Source: Clarias gariepinus
Lineage: Eukaryota
Reading direction: 5' to 3'
Length of the DNA: 64,000 nucleotides
NCBI RefSeq assembly: GCF_024256425.1
Contig: NC_071110.1
Location: 2,316,274-2,380,273, forward strand
The notes under the pieces were generated by a model that had not been told where the DNA came from, made no database searches, and worked only from the letters and a program-made list of their open reading frames with translations. A program made the translations under genes and the position numbers. The stretch's first letter is position 1. Each line of letters starts with the position of its first letter. Of the stretch, positions 1 to 39,770 are shown one piece after another.

Positions 1-329
1 TAATCACAAGGTTTATAATAAAGTGCCTTGAAACCTTAAAAGTCAATACAATGACATTTTAAAAGTGCTCTTTTGCCTTCATTTTAGTGCTTTTCTTGAG
101 ACTGATTCTGTCTTTAATAATAGTTCCATTGAGGTGTATTTTATTTTTTAAAAAGGCGGGTAGCAGGGGGTGTAAGAAGGAAGTAACTTGGAGTTAAACA
201 TTAGGAGGTTAAGCTCTCCAACCATATAGGGATGTATGAGGTCCACCTTTTTTGCAAATAGGCTGTTTTTATAGAATAAAATCACTGTCAAAAATAATCA
301 TGCGTAAAAAATAAATAAATAATATAATT

Positions 330-661
330 CTGTTTTTTGTCCGAGTTTGATTCCAAAATCTACGTACTAGCGTACAGGTACGAGATTTTGTGGATGGGGT
401 GCATGCGCCTAATCGATTCCTTTTCCCTCTGATAGTAATGCCTGTGTGTGGCCTTGATGAGGTATATTTGATAGTGGTGTAACACACTACATTCGTGGGT
501 GTAATTTCTCAATTCGTCCGTGTAACAGAGGAGTTGTAAAAACGAGTTTTGTGTCTGTAAACGGTCATATATTTCGGAGTTGTACTGTAACAAACACAAA
601 ATCTCGTATCTGTAAGATTTCATGGCTGTAGATTTTGGAATCCAACTCGGACAAAACACAG
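330..661. mobile_element. Palindromic MITE (Angel-like non-autonomous DNA transposon), ~332 bp, with ~36 bp TIRs ctgttttttgtccgagtt(t/g)gattccaaaatctacg / its reverse complement. It lies in the last intron of finTRIM gene A.
   Basis: Terminal inverted repeats are read directly at 330-365 and 627-661. The internal arms are also mutually complementary (gtacgagattttgtg ... cacaaaatctcgtatc). A second copy at 9831-10175 has identical flanks. Confidence 0.75.
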
Positions 662-1043
662 AATTACACAGAAATCCTTTTTTTCGCACAATTATTTTTG
701 ACAGCGATTTTATTCCATAGTTTCACGTTAATTTTAAGATGAAGAGACAAACCAAAACAACATGCTCTGCATATACCAACTAGTGCAGCTGAATAACATT
801 AAATCATTTTTATTGTATAAAAGCACTAACATTTAAATTTTATTCTTTGCTTGCCAATTAGAGTAAATTAAAAAAGCCCATCGTGTTGGGGAGATGGGGG
901 GATTAGACCTGGCCAGTCTTGATTATTAATTATTGTTACAACCCCCTGTAATTAGGCCTATGGGGGTAATATTTCACAGGTATGGGTCATTTATAAACCA
1001 TTTGTGTTCTTGTTAAGACAATATCTTTCAACTTGTGCTATGT

Positions 1044-1082
<39 letters not shown>

Positions 1083-1636
1083 GCTTTTGTGCTTTTGAAT
1101 GTGTTTTATACGTACACTGCAGAAAATCTTCTCTTTTTGGTTTTGAGAGTACACCCGTCTGAACTGCAGCTGTGGAGACACAGAGACAAAATAAAGACTA
1201 AAAAATAAAATAAAACATTTAGAGCCTCAACCAAGATACTGACAAAAACTTTCCTATCACTGTGCAGCGTTATAAGATTATAAGAATCAGTATCTTTAAA
1301 ATAAACACAACACTTTAATGTGTTAATAACATAATGTGTCTTTTAAATTTCTGCTAGACTTAATGGGGAAAATGTAGGGTTGTGGCTGCTGTTGAGCTAA
1401 GATCAGTTTTTTACTCTTTACTGTTGGATTTTATTTTTTTACTTGACCTCATTTATATAGCATACTTATAAAATTCCTTTAATGATAGTAGAATTAATCT
1501 CAATTTGATGTAACTTCCCAGGTTAATATTCATATATGGTTGTTAAGGTAGTCTTATTTCTGCTGATTTCTCGACTTCTTATTTCTGCCTGTACGTGATG
1601 TCAAACATAAGATTTTAGCTTAACAGGTTCTCTTAC

Positions 1637-1760
1637 CACGTGGATTAATTTTGTTGAATTCTTCCTCAAAGATTTCTTCAATTCGTTTTCTCAGATCTGA
1701 AAGAGATTTCTGCACTCCATCAAATGAGAGATGTTGATTGACAGTAAAGCTGGGTGAGTC
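1637..1760 (-). CDS. finTRIM-like gene A, exon 4 (124 nt, phase 0 in, phase 1 out). It encodes DSPSFTVNQHLSFDGVQKSLSDLRKRIEEIFEEEFNKINPR(G/D).
   Basis: The acceptor is ..ctggatgtgag|GAC and the donor is CGTG|gtaaga. The reading frame is continuous with exon 3, whose donor is phase 0. The equivalent 124-nt exon is found in all four paralogs. Confidence 0.6.
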
Positions 1761-1984
1761 CTCACATCCAGGAGAAACACAGAGAGACGGGAAACTCTAC
1801 AGAGAGGAAACACATCATAGAGAAGGAGAAAAGTGTAGGAGAGGAACGAATGAATCTCAGACTGAATCAGACCAAAGACACACTTGTGATCTCAGACAGG
1901 AACATTTATTGTTGCTGTAATGAGATTTTAGGAGGAAACTTTGTGAGGAACAGCGCCCTCTGTAGATCAGACAGTGAGTGTTAC

Positions 1985-2218
1985 CTGGAGGAAGTGGACA
2001 TCATCTTCTGTTTGTGAAAGCTTCTTCATCTCAGTGACTCTCCTCTTAAGATCAGCAATCTCTTTCTCCAGTGGCTTCAGGAGTCGTTCAGCTCGACTCA
2101 GTTCAGCTTTCTCCTGAGCTCTGATCTTCTCTGTCACCTCCGAGCGCTTTTTCTCCATAAGGCTGATCAGCTCAGTAAAGATCTTCTCATTGTCATCTAC
2201 TGCTGCTCGTGCACGCAT
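1985..2218 (-). CDS. finTRIM-like gene A, exon 3 (234 nt, coiled-coil). It encodes MRARAAVDDNEKIFTELISLMEKKRSEVTEKIRAQEKAELSRAERLLKPLEKEIADLKRRVTEMKKLSQTEDDVHFLQ.
   Basis: The acceptor is tcctaacag|ATG and the donor is CTCCAG|gtaaca. The 234-nt size is typical of a TRIM coiled-coil exon. It matches the six-frame ORF at 1967-2218. Confidence 0.75.
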
Positions 2219-2224
2219 CTGTTA

Positions 2225-2260
<36 letters not shown>

Positions 2261-2361
2261 AGGGGGGGGGGGGGTACCTTTAAGTTTGATAACTTTCTTT
2301 TTCTTGGAAAAGAGGAGAAGAGAAAGTAGGATAGTGTTTTTAAGGAAATCTCTTTTCTTAC

Positions 2362-2457
2362 TTTAATTGAGTCAACAGACTGTTTCAGCTTCTGCATCCT
2401 TTCCATCTTCGTTTGTATCCTCTGCTGGAATTGCAATTGCATTTCCTCTAGCTCAGG
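2362..2457 (-). CDS. finTRIM-like gene A, exon 2 (96 nt). It encodes PELEEMQLQFQQRIQTKMERMQKLKQSVDSIK.
   Basis: The acceptor is tctcag|CCTGAG and the donor is ATTAAA|gtaaga. The exon is exactly 96 nt and phase 0 at both ends, which is the canonical 96-nt exon of B30.2 TRIM genes. Confidence 0.7.
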
Positions 2458-3389
2458 CTGAGATCAAATAAAATATTTTTAATTGTTCCTGTATCAAAAG
2501 CTCAGTGTGTCAATATTATTAGCATTTAAAAATCTTAAATAATTCTTTTGATTGTGTAACGCAGCTTTGTGACAATGACAGTTGTTAAAAGTGCTATACA
2601 AATAAATTTAAATTGAATTTAATTTAATAAAAAAAAAAGAAACTTATTCTACAAACTGTAGGTTAATAGTAAATTATGGTTGCAGGTTAAGGCATACTTT
2701 ATTAATTAATTAATTAATTAATTTGTTTATTTATTCATTTTAAACCTGATTCCTGTAACAATATGACTACTGATATAGTACATTACAGTACATTAAGGTA
2801 GCCCAGAAGTCTCCAAAATCCAATTACATTCATACAAAAAATCTTAGCGTTTACCTGCATGAATAGTGAAACAAATGATATTTGTATGAAAGACCACACA
2901 TAAAGCTGTGTTCTTTTTTTCCCTTCCTAATGAACTTATTTACTAGACATCTCCATCTTACGTTCCTTTATTACTGACAAAGGTTCGACATACTGTAACT
3001 CTCCCCTAACCACATCACATGTAAACCGTTATGCTCATACTGTACTATACATTTTCCTAACTGAAGTTTATAATATAAAGATGTCTAAAATAAAATGTAT
3101 TAGCGTAACAATTCAGAGTTTCTAAAAAATTTACATATTATAAACAAGCAACAAGCTTTAACACACTTTAGTGGTAAAACACTGTTACAATGTTGCTGGG
3201 CTTGGCTGTTTAAAGTGCACTGACAGGTCAGACCTGTTTCACACTTCTTTATAAAAAGCCCTGTGTGTTCTAATAAAATAATAAATAAAAGCCCTCCACA
3301 TTGAATGACTGAATAGAAATTATATTAGAACTCCTGTATTATTTGCATACAATTACTTAAATAAAAGTATAATGACAATAAGTTCTCAC

Positions 3390-3749
3390 CTGTTGTTTAC
3401 TTCTTTCTGCTTCAGCTAAAACTCTATCATGATCTTTATGTTCTCCCATCATACACATGTAACAGATGAAGCTTTGGTCAGTACGACAGTAGATGTCGAT
3501 CAGTTTGTTATGCTGAGAGCAGAATTTCTCTTGGAGCTCACAGGCTTCCATTAATTTGTGCCTCTTAAAGGCAGGAGACTGAAGATGAGGTTTAAGATGG
3601 TGTTCACAATAGGAGGTCTTACAGTCCTCACAGGACTTGACAGCTTTGCGTTTTCTCCCGGTGCAGGAATCACACTCCACATCTCCAGGTCCAGCGTAAC
3701 GATCATCAGGAGAAGCAGTGTGGTCATTAAAAAAACCATCCATTTCCAT
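3390..3749 (-). CDS. finTRIM-like gene A, exon 1. The ATG is at 3749 and the exon encodes B-box1 plus B-box2 only; there is no RING. The peptide begins MEMDGFFNDHTASPDDRYAGPGDVECDSCTGRKRKAV and ends SKQQ|gtgaga.
   Basis: The ORF at 3357-3749 carries B-box Cys/His spacing (CDSC..C..C.....C..H; C..H....C..D...IC..C....H..H). An in-frame TAG lies two codons upstream of the ATG, and the upstream 80 bp has no RING-like coding. The donor is CAACAG|gtgagaac. Confidence 0.75.
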
Positions 3750-3826
3750 GCACTAACACACCGAGAGTAAGAGAAAGAAAGCACACGAATGAGAGAGCTG
3801 GAAAGAGAAAGAGGAACTGTCAGGTA

Positions 3827-3838
3827 AGTTTCGTTTCC
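3827..3838 (-). promoter_or_regulatory. ISRE/IRF-E-like element (sense-strand GGAAACGAAACT) about 80 bp upstream of the gene A ATG. A second GAAAGAGAAAGAGGAA run lies at 3800-3815.
   Basis: Tandem GAAA half-sites can be read directly. The same class of motif sits at a similar distance upstream of all the other TRIM start codons in the window. Confidence 0.45.
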
Positions 3839-3889
3839 TTGAAGGAGCTTAGTTAATGTGGCTGGAAAATTATAGGAAGTGCAGGTGTG

Positions 3890-4200
3890 GCTAGTAGTTC
3901 AGGGATTGAAGAACTAACATATTCAAACATATGCAAATGTAGGCCTGAAAGGTTATTTACAGCTAAAAAGAGTAAAATATTGCCCCTATTAATTTATTAT
4001 TTTAATTTTAAGTAAAAAGGTAACGTTTGGAAACTACTAGGCTGAGAATTGGGCGTGGACACTAGTAGAGTGTAAGTGTTCAGCATGTGATGAGTAAGTT
4101 CAGGTGTACACGCGAAAGAGAGTGCTCCTGGTTTAAAAGTGTTTTCATATAATTATTTTACAGAAATAAATGTGTTGCCCAAGTACGAGCACAGTCTCAT
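3890..4200. repeat. Dispersed repeat of about 310 bp (gcaaatgtaggcctgaaaggttatttacag ... gtgttttcatataattattttacag). A second copy lies at 46470-46800.
   Basis: Near-identical blocks are read at both locations. Confidence 0.6.
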
Positions 4201-7099
4201 TCTTAAAAGTGTAACAAAAAGAAAAATACAGTTTAAAGTACTTATTTTTCATTAACACTATCAATTAATAACAAAAACTGAAGTTTCTTACCTGCTCCAA
4301 ATTTTTTGTTGACCACTTGACCAAACTGTTAGGCCTAGTCAATTCTTTTTATCTTTATTTGTTTGGTAAGTTTATATTTCTTCATAGATCTGCGAGCTGG
4401 GAGCCTGGAAACTAAAAGTCTCTTTCTGACACTTTGAGCTTGCAACAACTCCTTGAATTCCCCGCAGCTCTTTGTCCAATATCTTGCCAGTTTTTTTGCT
4501 TGAGTATGTTTGGGCATGTCAGGGAACTTGTTTGTTCTATGAATTAATTAAATCCTTAAAAAAATGCCAAAGAAATTTCCTGTTAGAACATTTTTCTCAT
4601 ATAAAATGTGGCATAATTTTACAGTTTTGGCCAACAATGTACATATTAATAAATTTATAAAGTGATGTCATTGCTGCATACCTTTTATCTTTGGTCATTT
4701 TTTTCTTTCCTTAATTTGTTTTAAACTAATTATAATTTAATTTAAACCAACACCTAATGGCTTTGAGTTTTTTTTTATTTTTTTTTATTCCATGTCCTCA
4801 GGACATTACCCACCTCTCCCCAATTAAGAGAGAAGATTAAACCCCTGCATCTTGGGGATGTGTATGTAGACTGGTTATATATAATTCTAAACGATTTCAC
4901 ACAAAACAGAAACATTAATTATGCCAGTAAAACTATACAGTACAGTTTATATTTACAGCTTATGAATGAACTGTGGTTTATTTTGTAGCAATTTGTAATA
5001 TAAAAGTGTTTGATACATTATGCCATGTGTTTAAAAAGGTTATACTTAAAATAATAAGTAAAGTACCTGTAACTCTAATAGCTCCATAAGCACAACACTT
5101 GAGTTCATCACATTCTCCTCTTCTGTACAGGGAAATGATCAGGGTCCTTAAAGTAATCAGACATGGGGCGCATTTAAAGCTAACTTAAGCTAACCTGTAT
5201 ATCCTACACCATCTTATACATGCATTTAAAATGTCACCATAAGATGCACATACAATTACAGGAGATGCTCTCAATCTTAATAACGTTAGTATTTAATATT
5301 ATCTTACAGGTCGCTCGCAGGCTCTCTGCTGGACCAGACTCCACATTGTCCAGTTCAGGTGATAAAGGTAGATGGTGTCGTGAGACACTGAATACTATTT
5401 ATTTTTATTATTATTTATCTTTTCGTATTCCTCACTTCAGTATCACACCATGTGTTGTGTATGGCTTGAGCCACACTCTGTTCAGCTCTTCAGCATTGCT
5501 TAATATTGCTGCATGGATACTTACGTAAATATCTACATTTTTATGTATAGTGTCCGATTGTCTTTAGACGGATGTTTTCCGTCTGCCTGAATTTTGAGCA
5601 AACACTGTACTTCAGCATACTGTAACTTCACAGAGATTCTTTAGCAGCCACATTTGTTTGGTTACGAAATCAAACAGTAATTGTGTCATTTCCTGTTTTG
5701 AGTATGAGTGTGTACACATGTCCCACCTACATTGCTTGGGAATGCATTAATCATTCAAGTGTGTTGTAGTGTAGTAATGTTTAAAGGGATGATTAACACA
5801 CTGTCCCCCCCACACACTGTGTACACTATCAGTTTAACATTCAACACTCTGTGCTCTGAGTTTGTCACCTCATCACTTTGTAAATGTGCAGTTTGGTGCA
5901 AATTCACTTTAACATACTGAACATTTACAAGTACACACTACACAATTGCACCTTAAGCATGATCCTATAAGAAACATGGACTAAAAACATCTCTGTATGT
6001 TTAATTTTATTAGGAATGTCAGTAGGTATGAATTTGTATGATTTGCTAATTAGACTCAACCCTATCTTCCTGCTTTTCCAAACATCTGGCTATATTTTAC
6101 CTACGTTTTCTAAGTTATATTAGGATTTTGGTCATAAACACTTTAATTAACTATGCCCTGTTGTTGCACAACGTCAAAGCAATAAATGTAGAAACTTTAT
6201 AGGTATTAGAAAATTTATTAAGAATAAAGCTCCTCACCAAGCATTTTAACTTTAATTCAATTTTGTAATACCTAATTACACAATGAACACTTAAAAAGTA
6301 TTGGTTGGGTATGTGTAATGGCTGATTTCTCTTTTAAAGCCTCAGCAAAGGTGGATAAAAACACAATACATCATAATGCATCAGGATGACTGACTTCACT
6401 TGATAATTTTTTTTAAATCATTAATTATACATGCAGTAACACATCCAAGGAATTTTCTAGATGTAATCTAGAAAACAAAAAAGATTCAACCACCATCAGT
6501 AGTACAGAAAGACACAGCATTTATGATTTATTATTTCTCAAGAAAAAGTATTTTTCCAAAGCCAAAACAGAATTTTAGAGACATTGTGCACATTTTCAAT
6601 CAGTATAAAAAATTAAATATGACATCTAATTTTTAATTTCAATATGCACTTTTATTTACATTTTATTTATACTAAGTATGATTAATGATGATGATGATGA
6701 TAAAAGAAAAACAGTCACTGTACTGCTGCTTCCAGTGAAGTCTGCATGTTTTTATTATACTGTACATTATACATTACAGTACTGTATGTTTTATATACAT
6801 TTTTATGCATCAAAACTTTTTGCAAAACAGTGACCACAGTGACGACTACACTGTGTGCACAACTGTTAGGCAAGTTGTATTTTTTATGATTGATCTAATT
6901 ATTACAACTACAGAATATTAATCAACCCAAAATATTAATAAACCTCAAACCTGAATATTTAAGGAAGTAAAAGTAATTTCTTAGGAGACTATTCATGTGT
7001 GGCAACTATTAGAATTACTATACAACTAAATGAATGAATAAAAATTTCCTATATCATGTTTATTTTTATATATAAAAAAAGTAAGAAAAATAAACAAAT

Positions 7100-7900
7100 A
7101 CCTAAAAATTTGCAAATAAACATATTTGGCATGGAAAAAAAATATTGACCAATATAGCCACCCTTCTTTTCAATAACAGTCATAAGCCTTCCATTAATGA
7201 AGTTTTTTATTTTTTTTTACTTGTTGTGCAGCAGCATCCACAGCCTCCCATTTATCAGAGAGGTGTACTGTTTATCCTCATCGTAAATCTCCCATTTTAA
7301 AAGGGCCCACAAGTTTTCAATAGGGTAAAGGTCAGGTGAGGAAGGGGGCCATGTCATTTTTCTTTTATCTTTAAGGCCTTTACTGGCTAGGCATGCAGTG
7401 AATTACTTTAATGCATGCGAGGGGGTATTTCTTGGCCCAGTCCTAATGTTACAACTTATGTGTCTTGTTCTGTGGTGGTCGGGTTTCAGCCTTCCTTACC
7501 TGGCCATGTCTCTGAGCACTGAACACTTCTGGGTACGATAGGTACGTTGCAGTTCTGGAATATGACAGCACTGGAGGATAATGGGTTCCTGGTAGCTTCA
7601 CTTTTAATTCTTCTCAAATCTTTCGCAGTTAATTTGTGTCTTTTTTTTCACAACATGTTACTTGCAACCCTGTTGACTATTTGCAACGTTTGATGATTTT
7701 GTGATCACACCCCAATATCTTAGCAATTTAAAGAGTGCTGCATCCCTCTTAAGACTTTTTACCTTTTTTTTTTTTTTTTACTTTTCAGAATCAATTAAAT
7801 CTCTTCTTTTGGTCCATTTTGCCTGAGGAAGCCAACACCCTCCCTCATTACAGATATACACATCATCTGATATGTTTAAATTTAATAAGCATTCGAGTTT
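7100..7900 (-). mobile_element. Degraded Tc1/mariner-like transposon remnant (transposase C-terminal end).
   Basis: The reverse-complement translation of 7140-7330 gives ..SPDLNPIENLWALLKWEIYDEDKQYTSL.., which is the characteristic C-terminal motif of Tc1 transposases. There is no intact ORF. Confidence 0.5.
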
Positions 7901-8439
7901 ACACAGATTGGAGTTAGAAAATATGCATAAAAATTATGATTTGGTCAAAATACTTACTTGCCTAATAATTGTGCATACATACGTTTTGACAGAATCACAA
8001 CAGAAACTACAAAACCACATTTACTTCTGCGTTAAAGTAAAGAAGTGAGACCCAGAACGTTATTTTACGCATGTCGTGATCAGTGATGTTCGATCAGTGG
8101 ATTAAGCATAACACGGCTATCCTTTAAGGCAATAATGAGAAGATTTTGATGGATACATGACACCACAGCAAACCCCCTATTGTTTTAGAGGTAAAAATCA
8201 GTGTGTGTTTTGTTTGAGTTTTGTTTTATGGATCTTTTTTAGGTGGAATAGCAAAAAAATGACTTGACATTTCATCTAAATAATGAAAAAGAAATTGCAA
8301 AGCATTACCTTTCATTCAAGACCAAGATTATTACTATATCTGAAGGGGTTTTAAAGTAAGAAGGTTTTTTCAACATGTTGTACAGTATTGGTATACAAAT
8401 TTTACTTTTGAGGTCTCCAATTGATGCTATAAAAAATAC

Positions 8440-8690
8440 TATTTTTATTTTCATTCATTCATTTTTAATACCGCTTATCCTGTACAGGGTTGCTGGGGGC
8501 ATGGCGCCTTTGAGCTGAGACAGGGTGCCAATCTATCACAGACACACAATCTCACACGTTCATTCACTCACTACATGTAGCTTGGGAACGCCAGTTAGTC
8601 TAGTCTGCATGTCTTTGGACTCCCCAAGCAGGGGCAGAACATGCAAACTCCATGCACACAGACCCCGAGGCAAGAAACAAAATATAAATT
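8440..8690. repeat. DANA-like SINE-related dispersed repeat (..ataccgcttatcctgtacagggttgctggggg ... catgtctttggac ... aacatgcaaactccatgcacacag..).
   Basis: The same element family recurs at 37730-37830, 49110-49380 and 54720-55060. Confidence 0.6.
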
Positions 8691-8790
8691 AAAATTTTTA
8701 TTTGTCACGTACACAGTCATACACAGTACGATATGCAGTGAAATTTTTCGACTGCCAGTGACCTTAAAATAAAAGCTTAAACATAAGAAA
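8690..8790 (-). mobile_element. Solo 3' terminal fragment of an L2-like LINE (..tttatttgtcacgtacacagtcatacacagtacgatatgcagtgaaat..).
   Basis: The same approximately 100 bp terminal sequence bounds the LINE copies at 22175 and 59320. Confidence 0.55.
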
Positions 8791-9113
8791 TAAATGAGTT
8801 ATGACCAATAAATCTGACCAAACCTGACTTTATGTACAGTAAAAGAAAAAAATCTATTGTATATATATTTTTATATGATCAGTTTAGAGGTGTATGAGTG
8901 AGACAGATATAAAATACTTCATTCTAGCTTCTGTTACTCTGTGTCAGTAATTCATACAATTATTATTTTAAATGAGACCATGATGATAAATAGTGCAAAG
9001 AATGTGGGAACTGTGCTCTTTTTACTTACTGGTTATACCATTTCTTTTTTTTTTTAAATTAAAAAGAAGTGACATTTAACAGGTTAAATCTAGGTTTAAG
9101 TCTTCTTCATTTA

Positions 9114-9682
9114 CATGGAAGATGAATCGTCACTATCTTCGACATTTAATTTTGGATCACATAAACTTATATTTGAGTAAAAATAACGTATCCTGAACCC
9201 AGCGTACAGAGGCTGAGTGAATGTGGTGTGGACACTGTGGAGGAGACTCATCGTGTCAGAGACGCTGTAGAAGGACAGAGTTCCTGCACTGTGATCCACA
9301 TACACTCCTATACTGAACAGTGATCCTTGTGAAACAGTGAGTTTTATTTCAGTGTTGTCATGCCAGAAAGATAGAGACTTAAGATAACACTGCAGATTCC
9401 AGGAATGACTGTTGCGTCCAAACACACACTCGTCACCCTCTCCTTTCCTGCTGATATTTTTATATGAGACTGATACGTCCACACCCATACCCTTATACTC
9501 TACCTCCCAGTAACAGCGTCCACACACACTCTCTCGACACAACACCTGAAGCGAGGAGTCAAACCTCTCTGGATGCTGACAGTATTGTTGTGCTTCCTTA
9601 ACCCGTGTCACTGCTCTGCTCCTCTCAGACAGAATGAGCTGGTCATGTGCTGTGTTGGGATCCAGAGTCAGATAACGAAAAT
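9114..9682 (-). CDS. finTRIM-like gene B, terminal B30.2 (PRY/SPRY) exon. It encodes (D)FRYLTLDPNTAHDQLILSERSRAVTRVKEAQQYCQHPERFDS...LDPNTAH...WEVEY...GVYVDHSAGTLSFY...PLYAGF... and the stop codon is at 9111-9113.
   Basis: The acceptor is cgctttag|ATTTTCG and is phase 1, completing the GAT (D) codon with the G from exon 4. The LDP, WEVE and the C-terminal AGTLSFY/PLYAGF motifs are typical of B30.2 domains. Confidence 0.8.
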
Positions 9683-9830
9683 CTAAAGCGATAAAATGTT
9701 CACAGGCTAGATATTAATCACAAGGTTTATAATAAAGTGCCTTGAAACCTTAAAAGTCACCACAATGACATTTTAAAGATGCTTCTTGGCCTTCATTTTA
9801 GTGCTTTTTTTAAAACTTTTCTTAAAAATT

Positions 9831-10175
9831 CTGTTTTTTGTCCGAGTTGGATTCCAAAATCTACGGCCACAAAAGCGTACAGGTACGAGATTTTGTGGAT
9901 GGGGTGCATGCGCCTAATCAATTCCTTTTCCCTCTGATAGTAATGCCTGTGCATGTGACCTTGATGAGGTATATTTGATAGTGGTGTAACACAGTACATT
10001 CGTGGGTGTAATTTTGTAATTCGTCCGTGTAACAGAGGAGTTGTACAGTACAAATGAGTTTTGTGTCTGTAAACGGTCGTATGTTTTAGAATTGTACTGT
10101 AACAAACACACAAAATCTCGTATCTGTAAGATTTCATGACTGTAGATTTTGGAATCCAACTCGGACAAAACACAG
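9831..10175. mobile_element. Second copy of the palindromic MITE (345 bp), in the last intron of gene B.
   Basis: The TIRs read ctgttttttgtccgagttggattccaaaatctacgg at 9831-9866 and ctgtagattttggaatccaactcggacaaaacacag at 10140-10175. Confidence 0.75.
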
Positions 10176-10551
10176 AATTACACAGAAATCCTTTTTTTCG
10201 CACAATTATTTTTGACAGCAATTTTATTTCATAGTTTCACATTAATTTTGAAGAGACAAACCAAAACAACATGCTCTGCATATACCAACTAGTGCAGCTG
10301 AATAACATTAAATCATTCTTATTGTATAAAAGCACTAACATTTAAATTTTATTCTTTGCTTGCCTATTAGAGTGAATCAAAAAAGCCAATCGTGTTGGGG
10401 AGATGGGGGGATTAGACCTGGCCAGTCTTGATTATTAATTATTGTTACAACCCCCTATAATTAGGCCTATGGGGGTAATATTTCACAGGTATGGGTCATT
10501 TATAAACCATTTGTGTTCTTGTTAAGACAATATCTTTCAACTGGTGCTATG

Positions 10552-10552
10552 T

Positions 10553-10611
<59 letters not shown>

Positions 10612-10612
10612 G
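10552..10612. repeat. (TG)n microsatellite. Similar tracts lie at 1041-1080, 2221-2262, 11763-11790, 35788-35822, 36425-36470, 37277-37312, 52432-52492, 54250-54305, 55413-55452 and 55538-55566.
   Basis: Direct reading. Confidence 0.95.
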
Positions 10613-11170
10613 CTTTTGTGCTTTTGTATGTGTTTTATACGTACACTGCAGAAAATCTTCTCTTTTTGGTTTTGAGAGTACACCCGTCTGAACTGCAGCT
10701 GTGGAGACACAGAGACAAAATGAAGACTGAAAAATAAAAGAAAACATTTAGAGCCTCAACCAAGATACTGACAAAAACTTTCCTATCACTGTGCAGCGTT
10801 ATAAGATTATAAGAATCAGTATCTTTAAAATAAACACAACACTTTAATGTGTTAATAACATATTGTGTCTTTTAAATTTCTGCTAGACTTAATGGGGAAA
10901 ATGTAGGGTTGTGGCTGCTGTTGAGCTAAGATCAGTTTTTTACTCTTTACTGTTGGATTTTATTTATTTTTTTTACTTGACCTCATTTATATAGCATATT
11001 TATAAAATTCCTTTAATGATAGTAAAATTAATCTCAATTTGATGTAACTTCCCAGGTTAATATTCATATATGGTTGTTAAGGTAGTCTTATTTCTGCTGA
11101 TTTCTCGACTTCTTATTTCTGCCTGTACGTGATGTCAAACACAAGATTTTAGCTTAACAGGTTCTCTTAC

Positions 11171-11294
11171 CACGTGGATTAATTTTGTTGAATTCCTCCT
11201 CAAAGATTTCTTCAATTCGTTTTTTCAGATCTGAGAGAGATTTTTGCACTCCATCAAATGTGAGATGTTGATTGACAGTGAAGCTGGGTGAGTC
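11171..11294 (-). CDS. finTRIM-like gene B, exon 4 (124 nt).
   Basis: It is homologous to gene A exon 4 and has the same splice junctions. Confidence 0.6.
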
Positions 11295-11518
11295 CTCACA
11301 TCCAGGAGAAACACAGAGAGACGGGAAACTCTACAGAGAGGAAACTCATCATAGAGAAGGAGAAAAGTGTAGGAGAGGAACGAATGAATCTCAGACTGAA
11401 TCAGACCAAAGACACACTTGTGATCTCAGACAGGAACATTTATTGTTGCTGTAATGAGCTTTTAGGAGGAAACTTTGTGAGGAACAGCGCCCTCTGTAGA
11501 TCAGACAGTGAGTGTTAC

Positions 11519-11752
11519 CTGGAGGAAGTGGACATGATCTTCTGTTTGTGAAAGCTTCTTTATCTCAGTGAGTCTTCTCTGAAGATCAGCAATCTCCTGC
11601 TCCAGTTGCTCCAGGAGTCGTTCAGCTCGACTCAGTTCAGCTTTCTCCTGAGCTCTGATCTTCTCCGTCACCTCCGAGCGCTTTTTCTCCATAGAGCTGA
11701 TCAGCTCAGTAAAGATCCTCTCATTGTCATCTACTGCTGCCTGTGCACGCAT
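11519..11752 (-). CDS. finTRIM-like gene B, exon 3 (234 nt, coiled-coil). It encodes MRAQAAVDDNERIFTELISSMEKKRSEVTEKIRAQEKAELSRAERLLEQLEQEIADLQRRLTEIKKLSQTEDHVHFLQ.
   Basis: It matches the six-frame ORF at 11501-11752, with an acceptor cag|ATG and a donor CAG|gtaaca. Confidence 0.75.
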
Positions 11753-11902
11753 CTGTTAGGACACACACACACACACACACACACATAGAGAGAGAGAGAA
11801 AGAGAGAAAGGGAGGGTCCTTTAAGCTTGATAACTTTCGTTTTCTTGGAAAAGAGGCGAAGAGAGAGGAGGAGAGTGTTTTTAAGGAAATCTCTTTTCTT
11901 AC

Positions 11903-11998
11903 TTTAATTGAGTCAACAGACTGTTTCAGCTTCTGCATCCTTTCAATCTTCGTTTGTATCCTCTGCTGGAATTGCAATTGCATTTCCTCTAGCTCAGG
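11903..11998 (-). CDS. finTRIM-like gene B, exon 2 (96 nt).
   Basis: It is homologous to gene A exon 2 and the reading frame is intact. Confidence 0.7.
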
Positions 11999-12895
11999 CT
12001 GAGATCAAATAAAATATTTTTAATTGTTCCTGTATCAATTGCTCAGTGTGTCAATATTATTAGCATTTAAAAATCTTAAATAATTCTTTTGATTGTGTAA
12101 CGCAGCTTTGTGACAATGACAGTTGTTAAAAGCGCTATACAAATAAATTTGAATTGAATAGAAAAAAAAACTTATTTCACAAATTGTAGGTTAATAATAA
12201 ATGATGATTGCAAGCTAAGGCATGCTTTATTTATTTATTCATTTTAAACCTGATTCCTGTAACAATACGACTACTGATATAGTATATTACAGTACATTAA
12301 GGTAGCCCAGAAGTTTCCACAATCCAATTACATGCATACATACACAAATCTTAGCATTTACCTGCATGAATAGTAAAACAAATGATATTTGTATGAAAGA
12401 TCACACGTGTTCTTCTTTTTTTCCCTTCCTAATGAACTTATTTACTACACATCTCCATCTTTCGTTCCTTTATTACTGACAAAGGTTCGGCATACTGTAA
12501 CTCTCCCCTAACCACATCACATGTAAATCGTTATGCTCATAGTGTACTATACATTTTCCTAATATAATAAAATAAATTGTTATGCGTAACAATTCAGAGT
12601 TTCTAATGAAAATCCACCTATTATAAACAAGCAACAAGCTTTAACACACTTCAAGTGGTGTTCACTTTAGTGGTAAAACACTGTTACAATGTTGCTGGAC
12701 TTGGCTGTGGCAGGTCAGACCTGCTTTACACTTCTTTATAAAAAGCCCTGTGTTCTAATAAAATAATAAATAAAAGCCCTCCACAACGAATGACTGAATA
12801 GAAATTATATTAGAACTCTAATATTGTTTTAATATAACTCTGCATTTTTTGCATACATTTACTTAAATAAAAGTACAATAACAATTAGTTCTTAC

Positions 12896-13270
12896 CTGTT
12901 TTTTACTTCTTTCTCCTTCAGCTACAACTGTATTATGGCCTTTATGTTCTTCTATCGCACATATAGGACAAATGAAGCTTCGGTCAGTACGACAGTAGAT
13001 CTCGATCAGTTTGTCATGCTTAGGACAGATCTTCTCTTGGAGCTCACAGGCTTTCATTTATTTGTGCTTCTTCAATTTAGGAGACTGATAGTGAGGTTTA
13101 AGATGATCTTTACAATAGGAGGTCTGACACACCAGGCAGGACTTAACCGCTTTGCGTTTTCTCCCGTTGCAGTAATCACACTCCACATCTCCAGGTCCAG
13201 TGTAACGATCAGCGAGAGAAGCAGTGTGGTCACCCAGACGCTGATTACTCGAAATACCAGCCATTTCCAT
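12896..13270 (-). pseudogene. finTRIM-like gene B, exon 1 (B-boxes only, no RING). An in-frame TAA at 13058-13060 changes KHK-L-MEA to KHK-stop. The gene is likely a pseudogene or a recently inactivated allele.
   Basis: The six-frame track splits this exon into ORFs at 13058-13270 and 12863-13057. Gene A has TTA (Leu) at the homologous codon. Confidence 0.65.
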
Positions 13271-13367
13271 GCACTAACACACCGAGAGTAAGAGAAAGAA
13301 ATAAAGTAAGAAAGAAAGAAAGCACACGAATGAGAGAGGTGGAAAGAGAAAGCGGAACTGTCAGGTA

Positions 13368-13379
13368 AGTTCCGTTTTC
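13368..13379 (-). promoter_or_regulatory. ISRE-like element (sense-strand GAAAACGGAACT) upstream of the gene B ATG. It is a weaker copy of the gene A motif.
   Basis: Direct reading. It has one mismatch to GAAANNGAAACT. Confidence 0.3.
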
Positions 13380-13439
13380 TTCAAGGTTTTTTGTTCTTCA
13401 GTAAAAAAAAAAAAAAAAAAAAAGGAGCAATGATTGCAT

Positions 13440-14202
13440 TATCCTGTTTATATACTCAGCAAAAAAAGAAACGTCCTCTGACTTTCAAATGTTTTTACTT
13501 TCAGTAAACTTAACGCGTAAATATTTGTATTAACACTAAAAGAGTCAACACCATAAGACATGTTTCACAATGTGTCCCTAAATGCCAGTCAGTATCTGGT
13601 GTGGCCACCAGCTGCTTGAAGTACTGCAGTGCATCTCCTCCTCATGGACTGCCTATTGCGGACAGTCTGAGCACTGATGGAGGGATTGTGTGTTCCTGGT
13701 GTGACTCGGGCAGTTGTTGTGGCCATCCTGTACCTGTCACGCAGGTGTGATATTCGGATGTACCCATCCTGTGCGGGTGTTGTTACACGTGGTTTTCCAC
13801 TGCGAGGACGATCAGCCGTCTTTCCTGTCTCCCAGTAGCGCTGTCTTAGGCGTCTCATGGTGCGGACATGGTGATTTATCGCCCTAGCTACATCAGCGGT
13901 CCTCATGCCTCCCTGCAGCATGCCTAATGCACGTTCACGCAGATGAGCAGGGACCCTGGGCATCTTTCTTTGGGTGTTTTTCACAGTCGGTAGACAAGTC
14001 TCTTTAGTGTCCTGCGTTTTTAAAACTGTGACTTTAAATGCCTACTTTCTGTAAGCTGTTAAGGTCTTAACGACCATTCCACAGGTGCATGCTAATTAAT
14101 AGATTATGGTTAATTGAACATGCATGGAAAACATTGTTTAAACGGTAAACAACTGTTTTAGCAACTTATCAAACATCGTATTTAACAAAATAATTACTAA
14201 TA
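13440..14202 (-). mobile_element. Tc1-like DNA transposon remnant. It is internally deleted and keeps the N-terminal part of the transposase ORF at 13589-13984. Its far end is separated from the rest by the BEL insertion.
   Basis: The ORF MPRVPAHLRERALGMLQGGMRTADVARAINHHVRTMRRLRQRYWETGKTADRPRSGKPRVTTPAQDGYI.. is a Tc1 helix-turn-helix N-terminal domain. TIR-like motif gacgtttcttt appears at 13458-13472 and in inverted orientation at 20922-20936. This block is absent from the paralogous position in copy A. Confidence 0.55.
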
Positions 14203-17200
14203 TATACTCTTTAACATGTTTAATGTCAAAGAAATGAACTTACAGCATTGCCTCTATGATGCCTCTTAGTGGATGCAATGGATTGTTGAGCACACTATGA
14301 CTATGTCATTGCCTTCACTCAGAACTGCGATTACACCGGAAGTGACTAAACAGGAAGTAACCAAACAGGAAGTGATGTCATCACATAAAAAATAATATGT
14401 TTACTAAATGAGGTAGATAAAGGAAAAGTCATTATAAACTTTATATTTCCACTTGAAAAAATGTACCAAAAAATTTAAAAGAAACTATTTACAAGTTAAA
14501 TTTCTTAAAGGACAAAACACTCCTTACCTGACCTATGTGAGGTCACTATAAACTTGACAGCGTGCTAAACCTAGTCTCTAGATCAGTCTTTGGGAAGAAG
14601 TAGAACGACTTCTGCAATTGGCCTTAGAAAGGTTTTGATATTGTCTTGGTCAGTTGTTGTGACCTCAACCTTTCTTACATGCCCGTCTTTCCAGGGTATA
14701 CGGCCGAGGTTCTGGCCATGGGCCAACAGTTGCGGGCTATCTGCTTGTCCCTAAGCAGAACTAGATCCCCCACTTGAAGGTTTCTGCGAGGTACTGTCCA
14801 CTTTTGTCTGTGTTGCAAGCAAGGTAAGTATTCACAGCTTCAGCGAGTCCAGAACTGGTTTGCAAGAGCTTGAACTTGTCTCCATTGCTTTGTGTACAGG
14901 TCTTTGTCCGAGAAGTCCCCGGGAGGAGGCAGAACTCCTGTCTTCTGTGTAAGGAGCACTGACTGTGAAAGTATGAATGTTTGTTCCGGATCTGCAGACA
15001 CAGGTAGGAGTGGTCGTGCATTTATAATAGCAGTCACTTTTGCCATTAGTGTGCAAAGGACTTCATGGGTTAAGCGAGTTTTCAGCTGCAGAAACATTGA
15101 ATCCAGGATTCTTCTGGCAATGCCGATCAGGCGCTCCCATGAGCCTCCCATGTGAGAACTGTGTGGTGGGTTGAATTCCCAGCTGCACTCTTGCTCACTG
15201 AGATACCTTTGCACTGTTTTGTCCATTCCAAGCTCCTTGCATGCTCCGATAAAATTGGTACCACAATCGGAACAAAGCCGTTTTGCAGAGCCTCTGAGTG
15301 CAAAGAAGTGCCTGAGAGCATTTATGCAACTTGACGTGTCCATAGACTCAATGATATCGATGTGCACAGCTCTTGAACTCATGCAGCACAACATAATGGC
15401 CCACTTCTTGCTCTCTGCCTGTCCTTCTCTGGTGCGTCGGCTTATGACTGACCAGGGACTGAATACATCGAGCCCTACATGTGTAAAGGGAGGGCAGACT
15501 TTGAGACGTTCAGATGGCAAGTCTGCCATGTTTTGTTCAAGCTTTCCACGCAGCTTGCAACAGGTTACGCATTTGTGTAGTACTAAATTAATTAGTGACT
15601 TCCCTCCCAAGATCCACAGTCCTGCTGCCTTGATTGCTCCTTCCGTCAGGTGACGGCCTTGATGTTTCACTTGCTCATGGTGATGTCGAGTGAGCAGTAG
15701 GGATACATGGCTATCTTTGGGAATAATTATTGTTTTTTTTTTTCCTAAGTTGTAACTTCAGAATACTTAAGTCTTCTTCCAACACAAATGAAATTGTCCT
15801 CCATGATCGGACTTAGTTTTCGCAAGCAGCTAGTTTTGGATACAGTTTGGTTAGCCTGGAGGGCTGACAGTTCTTTTGCAAATGCATCCTTTTGTGTTGC
15901 TTTAAGTATAACATTCCTTGCTTGGTCAAATTCGTCTGGAGTACAAGGTAAGTCACATCTGTGCCAACCTTTGCATTTGCTGTTTTGGTTTGTGTGGTTG
16001 AAGGATTTTGCCATGTGAACTAGAAATGCTACTCCTCTTACTAGGGAGGTGAAGGTAGAAAACCGTTGGAATCGGTTAGAGGTAAGCTCTGGTTCTTCAA
16101 GGTTAGTCGCACATGTTTGTATTTGTGGTCGGATTTCCAAGTCACTTTCAGGTTCAATTAGTTCAAATGTCTCTGTTATTTGTGTTCCTTCTGCAGATGG
16201 CTGAGGCAGGAATGAGGGGCCGGTGAACCAAGAAGTCTGAGCCAGATGGGATGCAGGTAAAGATCGCGACGCATGATCTGCAGGGTTTTCTTCTGTACGT
16301 ACGTAGTGCCACTGCTCACGTCTTAAAGACTGATGAATGCGTTGGACTCTATTGTGAACGTACACATAGAATCGTTTTGACACATTATAAATGTAGCCAA
16401 GCACTACTTTGCTGTCAGTAAAGAAATTTAAGTCACTTAACTCAAGATCTAACTCATCCTTAATGAGATCTGCCATCTCTACTGCTAAGACCGCAGCACA
16501 CAGCTCAAGCCGTGGGATTGTAGGTTCGGAGAGGGGTGCCAGTTTTGCCTTGCCCATAACAAATCCTACCTCAACCTGCACATCTTTCTGAGATGCTTTC
16601 AGATATGCTACTGCACCTATGGCCTTAGTTGATGCATCTGAGAATACACACAATTCTGTGTGCACCGCTTCAATTAGTGAGGTTGTTGTGTATGTACGTG
16701 GAACAAGAAGCTGTTCTAGGTTTTGGAGAGAATCTCTCCAGGCTTCCCATTTACTCAGTTTAGGGAGGAATGTGTCCCAATCTGACTGTTTAGAGGCAAG
16801 TTCTCTAAAAAGGGCTTTTCCCTGAATCGTGACAGGTGCCACCAGACCTAGAGGATCAAAAACACTGTTGACAGTGGAGAGGACTCCGCGACGGGTAAAT
16901 GACTTGGTAATGGTCGATGCAGAGTAAGTGAATGTGTCAATCGTGATCTCCCATAGCAGCCCTAAACTCCTTTGTGTGGGTGAAGTTTCTCCACTCAGAT
17001 CTAGGTCCTTAATTACTGGAGCACAATCTTCTAGCGGAAAAGCTTTTATGACTGTCTGAGAGTTCGAAGCAAACTTATGCAAACGGAGGTTTGACTCGGC
17101 TAGTGACGCCTGTGTACGCTGGAGCAGATCGATTGCTTCAGCTTCGGATGGAACGGATATCAAACCATCATCAACATAGAAACATCTTTCCACAAACTTG

Positions 17201-20200
17201 ACGGTATCAGCACCATACTCCTGTGCACCTTCTCTGATGGCTCTCCACAACCCATAAATGGCCACGGCGGGAGATGGCTGATTGCCAAAGACATGGACCT
17301 TCATTCAATACTCGATAATTTCCTTGTTGACGTCATTGACCTTGGCCATAGGAATCGAAAGAAGTTACGATGGTCATCACACACCAAGATACAATGGAAC
17401 ATCTGTTGAATGTCCGCTAGGATGGCAACCCTCTCTTTTCGAAATCTTAGCAGGACGCCAACAAGGGAGTTATTGAGGTTGGGACCTGTGAGGAGCACAT
17501 AATTGAGCGAGATGTCCGCGCAACGAGCACTGGAAATAAAGACCACCCTGATCTGCTTGGGTTTTTGAGGATGATAGACCCCAAATGTAGGAAGATACTG
17601 TTACATCCCTAGGGATGTATGCATATTAATATTTATTTGGGGTGTTGTTTTTTTCCCGCCCTTTGGGTGTGGCTGCTGGTTCCTTTGCTGTGTGCTCTTT
17701 TACTCTCTCTGCTTGCTTGGCAGTTAAATGCTCCCAGGTGATGCCAATCAGGGGGTGGCTACAGACGGTGCTGCTACAAAAGATCAGTGCACGCATTCCC
17801 GAGGAGAAGCTCATTTCTCCCCTGCTCCAGAATTGTGTTAGGGGGCCTGCTATCAGATAATTGTTGTTGTGGTGCAAGTATCAATGATTATAGATAATGG
17901 TTCAGTGAGTAGGTTGTATGTTTATTTTCTCTAGTTGGTGCAACCTACTTTAATATATATTTTCTTTGTTAGTGGTACTAAGAGGTATTGTAACTTTTTT
18001 TTTCTTTTTGTTATAGTTAAATGGGAAGACGTAGGGAGAGGGTGCCCTTTTATTTTGTTTAACCCATGTTTATCCCTGTTTTTCAGTTAGTAAGGGAGTG
18101 GACGAAAGCCTTTGTTGATTATTTCTTTTATTTTACTCGGTTAGGTTATTTAGTTATCCCCTTAAACAGCTAAAGTGTGTTTTGTTTGTTATGTTGGCCT
18201 TGACCCTCTCCTGAAATCATTTATTGCTCCAATGTTTTAGTACCTATAAATAAACCCTTGCTTAATTATCAAAAAGTGTTGTTGCATTTCTGGGGCAGTG
18301 GACTGAAGTGATCCTTCCACATTTTTTTTGTTAATTTCTTCCTTATAAGTTTAATTTCTTTTGTTACCCTCACTCCCACCCCTGGATCGAAGAATTCAGG
18401 TCTGGCTAATGAACTATTGCTCTGGTCGTATAGAATTACGTAGGCTTTGATGGCCATGTCTTTGGAACCTTCTGGGTACAGCTTTACAAGGCAGATTTTT
18501 GAGCATGAGCGGCCCCACTGACTTGGACCACAAACTTTTGTACAGCTTATATTGACTACAGCGTTATTAGAATTATCTTCTCTCTCCCCGCCATCCTCTT
18601 GTGATGGTGAAGGAGCCTTGACTGCTTGGGGTGATGGGCCAGGGTGCATGGCCACATCATGATAAATGCTTCCACATTCGGAGCATTCCACGGATTATGC
18701 ATTCCTTGGCGAGGTGAGAAATCGAAGAACAGCATTTGAAACATATTCCTTTCTCCTTGAGGAATGCCTTTCTGAAATCGAGAGGTTTGTTTCTAAATGT
18801 TCTGCATTTTTTTCAAGGGGTGCAGTTTATTGTGTAATGGACAGATTTTGTTAGGATCATCACCGGTTGCACATACATCTGTTTTGTGAACTGAGATGGA
18901 TTTGTTGGTTTGGAAACTCTTCACGATGGATCTGTCTGGTTTTGCAGTTGTAACACTGCTTTGATGCATAAAGCTTGGATCATTTCATTTTTTTGCTTCG
19001 TAGCACACAAAGTTACAGAAATCCTCAAAGGGAGGAAAGCGACCATAATTCCCTTCTTTGTAGCATGACCCAGAAGTCACCCACTTGTCCTGAAGTCCAT
19101 ATGGAAGCTTATCTATAATTGGTGCAATTCCACGTAAAGTGTCAAGGTATGACAGACCTGTGAGATAACCATCCTCTTTAGCTTCCTGGATTTTCATAAG
19201 CAAATCCCCCAGTTCACGTAATTGAATGTGGTCTTTAGCTGAAAACCTAGGAAAACTGTCCAATCGTTGATTCAGTGATCTTTCGATGATTTCTGGTGCA
19301 GCATAGCACTCATGTAGTCTTTCCCATGCTTTTTGTAGAGCCAGATTGGGATTATTGACATGCACTGAGCGGATCCGTTTCACTATTTCGCCAGATTACT
19401 TTCCCAGCCATTTCGTCATGAGGTCTAATTCCTGGGTTGCTGTGAGGTGAACTTTACGAGCTGCACTTGTGAATGAAGAATACCATGACCGATAATTTTC
19501 AGGCTTGTCATCAAATTGGTACAGTCCTGAATTAACAAGGTCTCGCCGAGCTAAATACTGTGCCAAAGGCTCTGCCTGTGGTGGCGTGCTATCTAGAGAA
19601 ATGTACTGAGCAGTGTAAGACTTGGCAGGTGTATTCATGATGGGGCTGGTCCTCCCAACTTCAGACTTAATCACACCTTCAGACAGATCAGAGAGGTATG
19701 TTGCAGGTAAGTGCATACTATCTGCTTTTTCAGACTTCGGCTTGTTTTTGGTAAACTGTGCGTTTTTAATGTCTTTCACAGCTGGACTCCACGTTATGAA
19801 GCTGTTATGTAAGTCGCCATGAAATGGAGGAGCAACGGGCAGAGCCGACAAGCGTGGAGAAGGAGAATGATTCTGAAGGTTGATTTAAGAATTGACATAT
19901 TCACTGGTACGTTCAATTTTAACTTTCTCTGATTCAGATCCTCCTCTTTCAACTGCGGCATGCATTGCTACTTCAGCATCTTCCAGCACTTGTGCCTCCA
20001 CAGCAGCTGCATCAGCTTCCCGTTGTAGTGTCAACACTTCTAACTCGGTGTCTATTCTTACTGTTTCCAGCTGATTTTGAGCTTCTCTTGTGGCCTTTTC
20101 CATTTTCAGTTTAGCCTCTTGGCTGGCATATGATGCTCCCACTTTGGCCGCTTCAGCTCTGGCCCGTGCAACTGGTCGTTGATCCGGATGACTTGCCACT

Positions 20201-39170: not shown

Positions 39171-39770
39171 CTCTTTTTCAGTTCTTTCTACTTTAGCTAA
39201 AACTGTATCATGATCTGTATGTCCATCCATTTTACACAAGTAACAGATGAAGCTTTGGTCAGTACAACAGTAGATGTCAATTAGTTTGTCGTGCTGAGAG
39301 CAGATCTTCTCTTGGAGATCTGCACAGGCTTCCACTAACTTGTGTTTCTTAAAGGCAGGAGACTGATAGTGAGGTTCAAGATGATCTTCACAATAAGAGG
39401 CCAGACACACCAGACAGGAATTAACAGCTTTGCGTTTTCTTCCAATGCAGGAATCACACTCCACATCTCCAGGTCCAGCGTAAGAGTAAGCAGGAGAAGG
39501 GGCTTGGACTTCAGTCTTCTTTAGTTTCACCACCACTTCAGCCAGAATGTTGTTCCTATGTAGAACAGGCCTTGGGGTAAAAGTCTCTCTACACTGAGGA
39601 CAGCTGTAGACACCCTTCACATCCTCCTGATCCCAGCAGCCATTAATACACACCTTACAGTAACTGTGACCACAGGAATTAGTCACTGGTTCTGTCAGGA
39701 CATCCAGACACACTGGACAGGTGAAGTGATCCACTGACAGCTTATCTACTAAAATATAGTCCTCTGCCAT
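39171..39770 (-). CDS. finTRIM-like gene C, exon 1. It encodes the C3HC4 RING plus B-box1 plus B-box2 and begins MAEDYILVDKLSVDHFTCPVCLDVLTEPVTNSCGHSYCKVCINGCWDQEDVKGVYSCPQCRETF...
   Basis: The 212-aa ORF at 39132-39770 carries canonical RING and B-box Cys/His patterns. The donor is ACTGAAAAAGAG|gtgagaac. Confidence 0.85.

Follow-up and report, generated by a model that had tools for sequence, protein, structure and literature searches.

A RING-less TRIM gene in a tandem finTRIM-like array of Clarias gariepinus, with a predicted deletion of the RING inside the first exon

The window analysed here, a stretch of 64,000 nucleotides (nt) of the African catfish Clarias gariepinus (contig NC_071110.1), contains an array of antiviral-type, TRIM25/TRIM16/finTRIM-like genes, every one of which lies on the minus strand. 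Alignment to the fetched locus L001 placed window positions 23057..1 on C. gariepinus chromosome CM044214.1 (GCA_024256435.1) with 99.996% identity. Our subject is the leftmost of these genes, designated gene A, and its relationship to genes B, C and D. An original prediction, centred on positions 3749-3838 (the gene A start codon and the 90 nt upstream of the start), held that A and B are RING-less paralogues standing in tandem with the RING-containing C and D. The distinguished features of the four genes are as follows.

Gene A, exon 1: 3749-3390, minus strand; first exon of an intact, RING-less gene
Gene A, exon 2: 2457-2362, minus strand; start of the coiled coil, 100% identical to P0075 and P0121
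Gene A, exon 3: 2218-1985, minus strand; coiled coil
Gene A, exon 4: 1796-1637, minus strand
Gene A, exon 5: 1169-1116, minus strand
Gene A, exon 6: just beyond the left end of the window (L001 23091-23620), minus strand; B30.2 domain
In-frame TAG: 3755-3753, minus strand; second codon upstream of the first ATG of gene A (gene B has the same upstream sequence, TTAGTGCATGG)
Putative alternative first-exon end ATGCAG/GT: 2855..2860, minus strand; within intron 1 of gene A
Gene B: exon 1 13270-12896, further exons 11998-11903, 11752-11519, 11330-11171 and 10698-10645, minus strand; RING-less, with a premature TAA
Gene B, exon 6: about 9683 to 9111, minus strand; B30.2 domain (exons 2-6 as one block, 9111..12001)
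Gene C: exon 1 39770-39171 and five more exons ending at 35215, minus strand; intact, RING present
Gene D: exon 1 57445-56846, then 54553-54455, 54243-54010 and 53818-53669, minus strand; RING present
Gene D, 3′ part: decayed B30.2 exon 53298-52786, exon-5-like piece near 52540 and intact B30.2 exon 50265-49702, minus strand

The spliced product of gene A comprises 477 amino acids (aa) encoded by six exons, with the domain order B-box1, B-box2, coiled coil and PRY/SPRY (B30.2). Translation starts at the ATG at 3749-3747 and the product begins MEMDGFF; exon 1 encodes a 25-aa leader (MEMDGFFNDHTASPDDRYAGPGDVE) followed by the two B-boxes, and ends at the donor GTGAGA. All five introns are canonical GT-AG introns (10/10 splice sites) of correct phase, the 477-codon frame is open, and a pseudogene test disclosed no premature stop, frameshift or splice-site loss. 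Pfam models matched at residues 73-110 (zf-B_box, E = 1e-9), 134-274 (TRIM_CC, E = 1.5e-49), 306-353 (PRY) and 357-463 (SPRY) of the 477 aa. B-box1 scored 25.4 bits against ANCHR-like_BBOX, which is below the curated cut-off of 27, and the zinc ligands of both B-boxes are all kept, as read off the alignment. Neither exon 1 nor the 477-aa product of gene A gave a Pfam match to a RING, and gene B gave none either. The exon 1 reading and the Pfam results confirm that gene A is RING-less, starts at MEMDGFF directly before B-box1 with a stop two codons upstream, and keeps both B-boxes, the coiled coil and the B30.2 domain.

Gene A is an ordinary RING-less TRIM of a well-known class; RING-less members such as TRIM14, TRIM16, TRIM29 and TRIM44 are a textbook exception within the family. 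It is also an already public gene model. The same 477-aa product is deposited for two assemblies, in GenBank (KAM9469295.1) and RefSeq (XP_053363751.1), as “tripartite motif-containing protein 16-like isoform X1”. The coding sequence of the annotated protein starts at 3749, as read here. The annotated isoform X2 (XP_053363752.1, P0075) has 359 aa, begins with MQ followed by exon 2, and would be devoid of both B-boxes and of a RING. Its MQ start would be produced if the putative first-exon end in intron 1 were joined to exon 2. Exact-sequence look-up of isoform X2 returned no gene record.

Complete C3HC4 RINGs are present in genes C and D. The first exon of each (39171..39770 with the ATG at 39770, and 56846..57445 with the ATG at 57445; both minus) encodes a RING, B-box1 and B-box2, and several RING families of Pfam match there. 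The five other exons of gene C, down to 35215, seem intact. As predicted, C and D are full-RING paralogues in tandem and in the same orientation; they lie 36 kb and 54 kb from gene A. The B30.2 pseudo-exon in the 3′ part of gene D (53298-52786) carries a frameshift and an internal deletion; downstream of it are the exon-5-like piece (about 52560-52510) and then an intact B30.2 exon of the A/B type (50265-49702).

Gene B, whose product begins MEMAGIS at the ATG at 13270 (exon 1 12896..13270, minus), shows the same RING deletion and start context as gene A. An in-frame TAA at 13060-13058 replaces the TTA of A, C and D at codon 71 (KHK-stop-MKAC), between B-box1 and B-box2, and the codon that follows is the ATG used as the start by the public models. 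Both of these (KAM9469658.1 in GenBank, 412 aa, and XP_053362956.1 in RefSeq, 425 aa) begin past the stop. In the pseudogene test the premature stop was recorded together with a 425-aa open reading frame that persists downstream. Therefore, gene B does not encode an intact protein with two B-boxes, a coiled coil and a B30.2 domain; it is at best a protein composed of B-box2, coiled coil and B30.2, or else a pseudogene. The view of gene B as a second RING-less TRIM holds as regards the shared start context and RING deletion, but the stop at codon 71 had been missed.

A RING that might be encoded elsewhere was sought by tblastn with the RINGs of C and D and by a family-specific RING hidden Markov model (HMM), built from 82 RING-bearing homologues and run on all six frames of the window. 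Both matched C, D and a decayed relic at 32368-32166 and nothing else, and neither detected RING-like coding sequence in the 5.3 kb between the start of gene A and the 3′ end of gene B. The statement that no RING is encoded upstream of gene A was thus upheld. The acceptor-like sequence ctctttccag, singled out as a possible joining site about 60 nt upstream of the ATG, has its AG at 3799-3798, i.e. 48 nt from the ATG, and the TAG at 3755-3753 does lie in its frame between site and start, as had been argued. Since ccag reads ccac in gene B, the site is not conserved.

The relic belongs to an orphan TRIM 5′ end (32166-32447, minus) with a perfect interferon-stimulated response element (ISRE) at 32447-32436, an ATG at 32368 and a RING remnant at 32368-32166. 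It is frameshifted, has lost most of its cysteines and zinc ligands (MAEAGILTDQE..SPVCLNLLKDP..YCKVCINDFWDEED) and is most similar to the P0060 subfamily; no B-box or later exons were found after it. The possibility that it represents the lost exon of gene B, or the reciprocal product of the deletion, was rejected in view of its own ISRE and ATG, its frameshift and its different subfamily.

The origin of the RING-less first exon became apparent when the 5′ ends of A/B and C/D were compared by local pairwise alignment. Over the 35 nt ending in the start codon, A/B and D are identical at 28/35 positions without gaps (CTCTTACTCTCGGTGTGTTAGTGCATGGAAATGGC versus CTCTTTCTCTCAGTGTGGTAGTGTAGAAAAATGGC), and the alignment of the 5′ untranslated region (5′UTR) scored 33-35, compared with a mean of 16.5 (standard deviation 2.3, maximum 27) for 500 shuffles. 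Further upstream, all four genes have in common the blocks TTACCT, ACAG and CTTTCTCT and an ISRE-type element. The relevant features are listed below.

Second ATG of MEM in gene A: 3741..3743, minus strand; in register with the start codon of C/D and in a better Kozak context (A at -3, G at +4)
ISRE-like element of gene A, GGAAACGAAACT: 3827..3838, minus strand; one mismatch to GAAANNGAAACT, at a position homologous to the ISREs of C/D
ISRE-like element of gene B, GAAAACGGAACT: 13368..13379, minus strand; one mismatch to GAAANNGAAACT, in the second GAAA half-site
Perfect ISRE of gene C, GAAATCGAAACT: 39833..39844, minus strand; 63-74 nt upstream of the ATG
Perfect ISRE of gene D, GAAATCGAAACT: 57508..57519, minus strand; 63-74 nt upstream of the ATG

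Perfect copies of GAAANNGAAACT occur three times in the 64 kb (0.33 expected), all on the minus strand and 57-79 nt upstream of the ATG of a RING exon, namely those of C, D and the relic (32436-32447). The motif has the appearance of an interferon-response element conserved in the promoters of this family. The first ATG of MEM is a new in-frame ATG, two codons upstream of the ancestral start. In the leaders of A/B, the “..DH” of the ancestral MAEGSLLVDKLSVDH is kept, and similarity resumes at “(T)ASP..RYAGPGDVEC”, which matches “ASPA..YAGPGDVEC” of C/D. These alignments indicate that exon 1 lost the RING when about 75 of its codons, approximately F16-P90 in gene D numbering, were deleted in frame. 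The deleted stretch comprised the complete C3HC4 RING together with the linker to B-box1, while about 95 bp of proximal promoter with the ISRE-like element, the 5′UTR, the ancestral start codon and the first 15 or so codons were spared. Because the ancestral start codon, the proximal 5′UTR and the ISRE-like element are retained in A and B, the RING was deleted inside exon 1, and not left behind in another exon; together with the in-frame TAG, this makes an upstream RING exon for gene A very unlikely.

Genes A and B are tandem duplicates with introns that are about 95% identical. The duplicated unit begins about 96 nt before the ATG and reaches as far as the B30.2 exon, which it includes to its end; homology ends approximately 7 nt upstream of the ISRE-like element of gene A, so that position 3845 or thereabouts marks the duplication boundary. 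The deletion is common to both copies and is therefore older than their duplication. As reconstructed from these comparisons, it arose in the Clarias lineage, independently of the old TRIM16 lineage. Intron 5 of gene A also harbours an element of about 450 bp (270-719) resembling a miniature inverted-repeat transposable element (MITE), with nested terminal inverted repeats of 42 nt (88%), 39 nt (95%) and 20 nt (95%). A matching stretch is located at about 9793-10221 in intron 5 of gene B; the element thus lies inside the duplicated unit, and its insertion is therefore probably older than the duplication.

The affiliation of the genes was examined in a neighbour-joining tree of 108 sequences (B-box1 through coiled-coil exon 3; no bootstrap, no zebrafish ftr included). 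Genes A and B are sisters in this tree, their nearest relative is the RING-bearing Clarias paralogue P0035, and C and D come next. As A and B are nested with RING-bearing Clarias paralogues and have kept the ancestral 5′UTR and ATG, they are not TRIM16 orthologues, and the NCBI name “TRIM16-like” denotes architecture rather than descent. Among solved structures, the best match of gene A is human TRIM25 (4cfg, E = 3e-51), over the whole protein, followed in the PDB by the PRY/SPRY domains of TRIM16L and TRIM16 (E about 1e-30). In Silurus, the nearest homologues bear the names finTRIM family member 14, 16 and 67, and many close catfish homologues are named TRIM25-like. The six-exon layout of finTRIM genes is matched in the array, where the first exon is complete in C and D and lacks its RING segment in A and B. 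With respect to TRIM class IV, gene A has the B-box, coiled-coil and PRY/SPRY domains and no C3HC4 RING, and counts as “incomplete” as PMC2533329 uses the term.

Many close homologues from catfishes, characins and knifefishes are likewise annotated without a RING. A large part of these are isoform (X2) models begun at an internal Met (MLAEVVEKLKK...), and others have short, distinct leaders fused to B-box1. In the Neoarius homologue, the leader and the start of B-box1 (MAE/LQAASPAH...) are encoded in one exon, and no RING was found in the 6 kb upstream. In Silurus meridionalis, the model starting MMNTEPQNASS... is part of a tandem array that also holds a second RING-less model and a RING-bearing gene of 569 aa. 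For Hemibagrus, a RING exon is present 5.3 kb upstream of the RING-less model, although it may belong to the neighbouring gene. We rejected the notion that the RING-less “TRIM16-like” homologues form one old clade with A/B, given that many are internal-Met models and that they are scattered in the tree. Because of this scatter, RING loss or RING-skipping has to be regarded as recurrent and not as the mark of one old lineage.

RING-less copies thus occur within tandem TRIM arrays of Clarias, Neoarius and Silurus, with differing breakpoints and, in Clarias and Silurus, with a RING-bearing neighbour. In Clarias, the B-box exon has moreover diverged 2-3x faster than the flanking non-coding DNA. 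It is conceivable, though we regard it as doubtful, that in-exon RING deletion constitutes a recurrent, selected route to RING-less partners that keep the proximal interferon-responsive element, and that it has produced a convergent decoy or regulatory layer in fish antiviral TRIM clusters.

The next gene beyond gene A, past the left edge of the window (L002 19344-24312), is located on the opposite strand and encodes a large product of 2729 aa with TROVE, NACHT and WD40 domains. It resembles telomerase-associated protein 1 and may mark the end of the array. The spaces between the TRIM genes are occupied by retroelements and other transposable elements, including long terminal repeat (LTR) retrotransposons and long interspersed nuclear elements (LINEs).

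Tc1-like helix-turn-helix fragment: 13.6-14.0 kb, within a transposable-element stretch at 13589-24584
BEL/Pao LTR retrotransposon: 14.8-19.9 kb
LINE remnant: 22.6-24.6 kb
Ty3/gypsy chromovirus: 40.5-44.7 kb (40503-44744)
LINE with endonuclease and reverse transcriptase: 60.6-63.6 kb (60605-63595), plus strand

The last of these explains why GC skew is strong towards the right edge. In addition, a repeat of about 1.05 kb is found in two copies with 87.7% identity, upstream of gene A (4459-5504) and upstream of gene B (20965-22034); it is probably a dispersed transposable element that lies outside the A/B duplication unit.

The explanation that we consider best overall, and rather probable, combines deletion of the RING within the exon with a role of gene A as a RING-independent binder or regulator. 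Its structural and evolutionary part, which rests on the sequence comparisons described above, is held with high confidence, and its functional part is tentative. Gene A would probably be transcribed from its own promoter, which may be interferon-responsive. Its product would probably dimerise through the coiled coil and bind targets through the fast-evolving B30.2 domain, with no RING of its own. It could then vie for targets with the RING-bearing paralogues or enter into complexes with them, which is the mode of action ascribed to RING-less TRIMs such as TRIM16 and TRIM14. The dominant-negative or decoy role put forward in the original prediction is plausible as a hypothesis, and is not new (Sardiello et al. 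2008, PMC2533329).

Several observations weigh against this explanation. Exact-sequence look-up of the 477-aa product returned the genome assembly only and no contigs from assemblies of sequencing runs. The ISRE-like element of gene A is imperfect, and beyond about -100 no homology between the A/B and C/D promoters rose above shuffled controls. Exon 2, in which the coiled coil starts, is strongly diverged between A/B and C/D, and heterodimerisation of A with C or D is therefore not a given. The ratio of non-synonymous to synonymous substitution rates (Ka/Ks) between A and B is 0.75 overall (0.76 in exon 1, 0.46 in the coiled-coil exons and 0.89 in B30.2). When gene C, gene D and the spare B30.2 exon served as outgroups for polarising the substitutions, the A lineage had 12 synonymous and 32 non-synonymous changes and the B lineage 11 and 32; with counts this equal, there is no sign that A is more constrained than the stop-bearing B. 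In a simulation, 6-15% of neutral copies were still open at the observed amount of change.

These figures also feed the alternative that survives best, namely that A and B are both turning into pseudogenes and that A has stayed open by chance since the loss of the RING. The TAA at codon 71 of gene B fits this scenario, as do the Ka/Ks of about 0.7 on both lineages, equal in A and B, the share of simulated neutral copies that remain open, and the single mismatch in each of the A and B ISRE-like elements, which in B affects the core half-site. High Ka/Ks values are, however, usual in this family, whose B30.2 domains experience diversifying selection (PMC2657112). In gene A, none of the ten splice sites and none of the B-box zinc ligands has been lost. 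Only three indels have accumulated in the exons of A and B since the duplication (15 nt, 6 nt and 1 nt, the last of them in the final codons, where it trims the C-terminal tail only), compared with 21 in the introns, 16 of which would be frame-shifting in exons. Thus, 8.9 frameshifting exon indels are expected and one, at the extreme C-terminus, is observed (P = 0.0014). This scarcity suggests that the reading frame was maintained after the RING had been lost, although the introns hold microsatellites that inflate their indel count, and the contrast is partly to be expected for that reason. Finally, RING-less relatives in the tandem arrays of several other catfishes indicate that such copies are tolerated or useful. 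We therefore regard progressive pseudogenisation of both copies as unlikely, while giving it more weight than any other alternative, and read the data as suggesting that the frame of gene A/B stayed under selection after RING loss and that the stop in B is a recent event.

The distribution of changes between A and B is uneven. Divergence amounts to 15.6% in exon 1 and 10.4% in exon 6, compared with 5.2% in the 5′ flank, 6.4% in intron 1, 4.6% in intron 5 and 0-4% in the middle of the gene; with all exons pooled against all introns, the difference is significant (Fisher's exact test, P = 6e-8). Synonymous sites of exon 1 are also affected (Ks = 0.22), and diversifying selection alone would not account for the excess in exons 1 and 6. 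The most obvious explanation would be gene conversion from other paralogues, confined to these exons; an unusual selective regime could be another.

In a further alternative, gene A is not a decoy but an autonomous ligase whose two B-boxes fold in a RING-like manner, as in human TRIM16. The claim that a RING-less TRIM lacks E3 ligase activity is an assumption, since human TRIM16, which has the same RING-less architecture, is reported to auto-ubiquitinate through its B-boxes (PMC3357404). Gene A shares this architecture and keeps all the zinc ligands, and its B-box exon is the fastest-diverging part in the A-B comparison (15.6% versus 5-6% in flanking non-coding DNA), which could reflect a new selective regime. 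On the other hand, gene A is not a TRIM16 orthologue, and the finTRIMs studied so far act in a RING-dependent manner (review PMC13030082). By analogy with TRIM16, ligase activity of gene A is imaginable, but we judge it improbable.

That the RING comes from an upstream exon which has escaped recognition, or is added by trans- or alternative splicing, the mature protein being a normal RBCC (RING, B-box, coiled-coil) TRIM, is hinted at by the acceptor-like ctctttccAG 48 nt upstream of the ATG and by the degenerate RING relic 19 kb upstream of gene B, but this can hardly be sustained in the face of the in-frame TAG between site and ATG, the AC at that site in gene B, the 5.3 kb from A to the end of B devoid of RING coding, the ancestral initiator ATG and 5′UTR directly adjoining the deletion, the decayed state, own ISRE and ATG and P0060-like subfamily of the relic, and the RING-less models of gene A in both RefSeq and GenBank.

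In-exon deletion of the RING, with gene A as a possible RING-independent regulator, adds modestly to what is known, and the addition is mechanistic: a clean in-exon deletion that kept a promoter segment and the start codon and preceded a tandem duplication, with similar independent RING losses in other catfishes. If the RING-less copies are expressed and modulate the RING-bearing genes next to them, they would amount to naturally occurring dominant-negative or RING-independent variants, with which the function of finTRIMs could be dissected in aquaculture species. Our literature searches found no dedicated study of RING-less finTRIMs or of catfish finTRIMs.

Among known systems, TRIM25, an E3 ubiquitin/ISG15 ligase, differs from gene A in that its function depends on a RING, which gene A does not have; the antiviral activity of fish TRIM25 needs this domain (PMC13030082). 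The finTRIM (ftr) genes are closer. They are fish-specific, arranged in tandem, evolve fast in B30.2 and frequently give rise to pseudogenes and truncated copies (van der Aa et al. 2009, PMC2657112). Like the catfish array, they are related to TRIM25 and TRIM16 and encode the RING and both B-boxes in the first exon and B30.2 in the sixth and last; A and B differ in lacking the RING of this family-defining first exon. The founding survey was seeded with RING/B-box first exons and reported just three truncated ones (PMC2657112). Induction of finTRIMs by virus and interferon (PMC2657112) would fit the ISREs predicted upstream of C and D.

Mammalian TRIM16 and TRIM16L, which belong to class IV, have the same domain order as gene A, i.e. 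B-box1, B-box2, coiled coil and PRY/SPRY without a RING. Genes A and B lost their RING recently and within their own lineage, whereas TRIM16 is of ancient origin (PMC2657112). TRIM16 homodimerises via its coiled coil and forms heterodimers with other TRIMs (PMC3357404), and dimerisation of this kind is the behaviour proposed for gene A. Sardiello et al. (2008, PMC2533329) put forward that RING-less TRIMs either regulate their orthodox relatives through hetero-interaction or else employ their B-boxes as RING-like modules, and TRIM16 is reported to do both (PMC3357404). Their first proposal coincides with the decoy idea of the original prediction; it was framed for six human genes.

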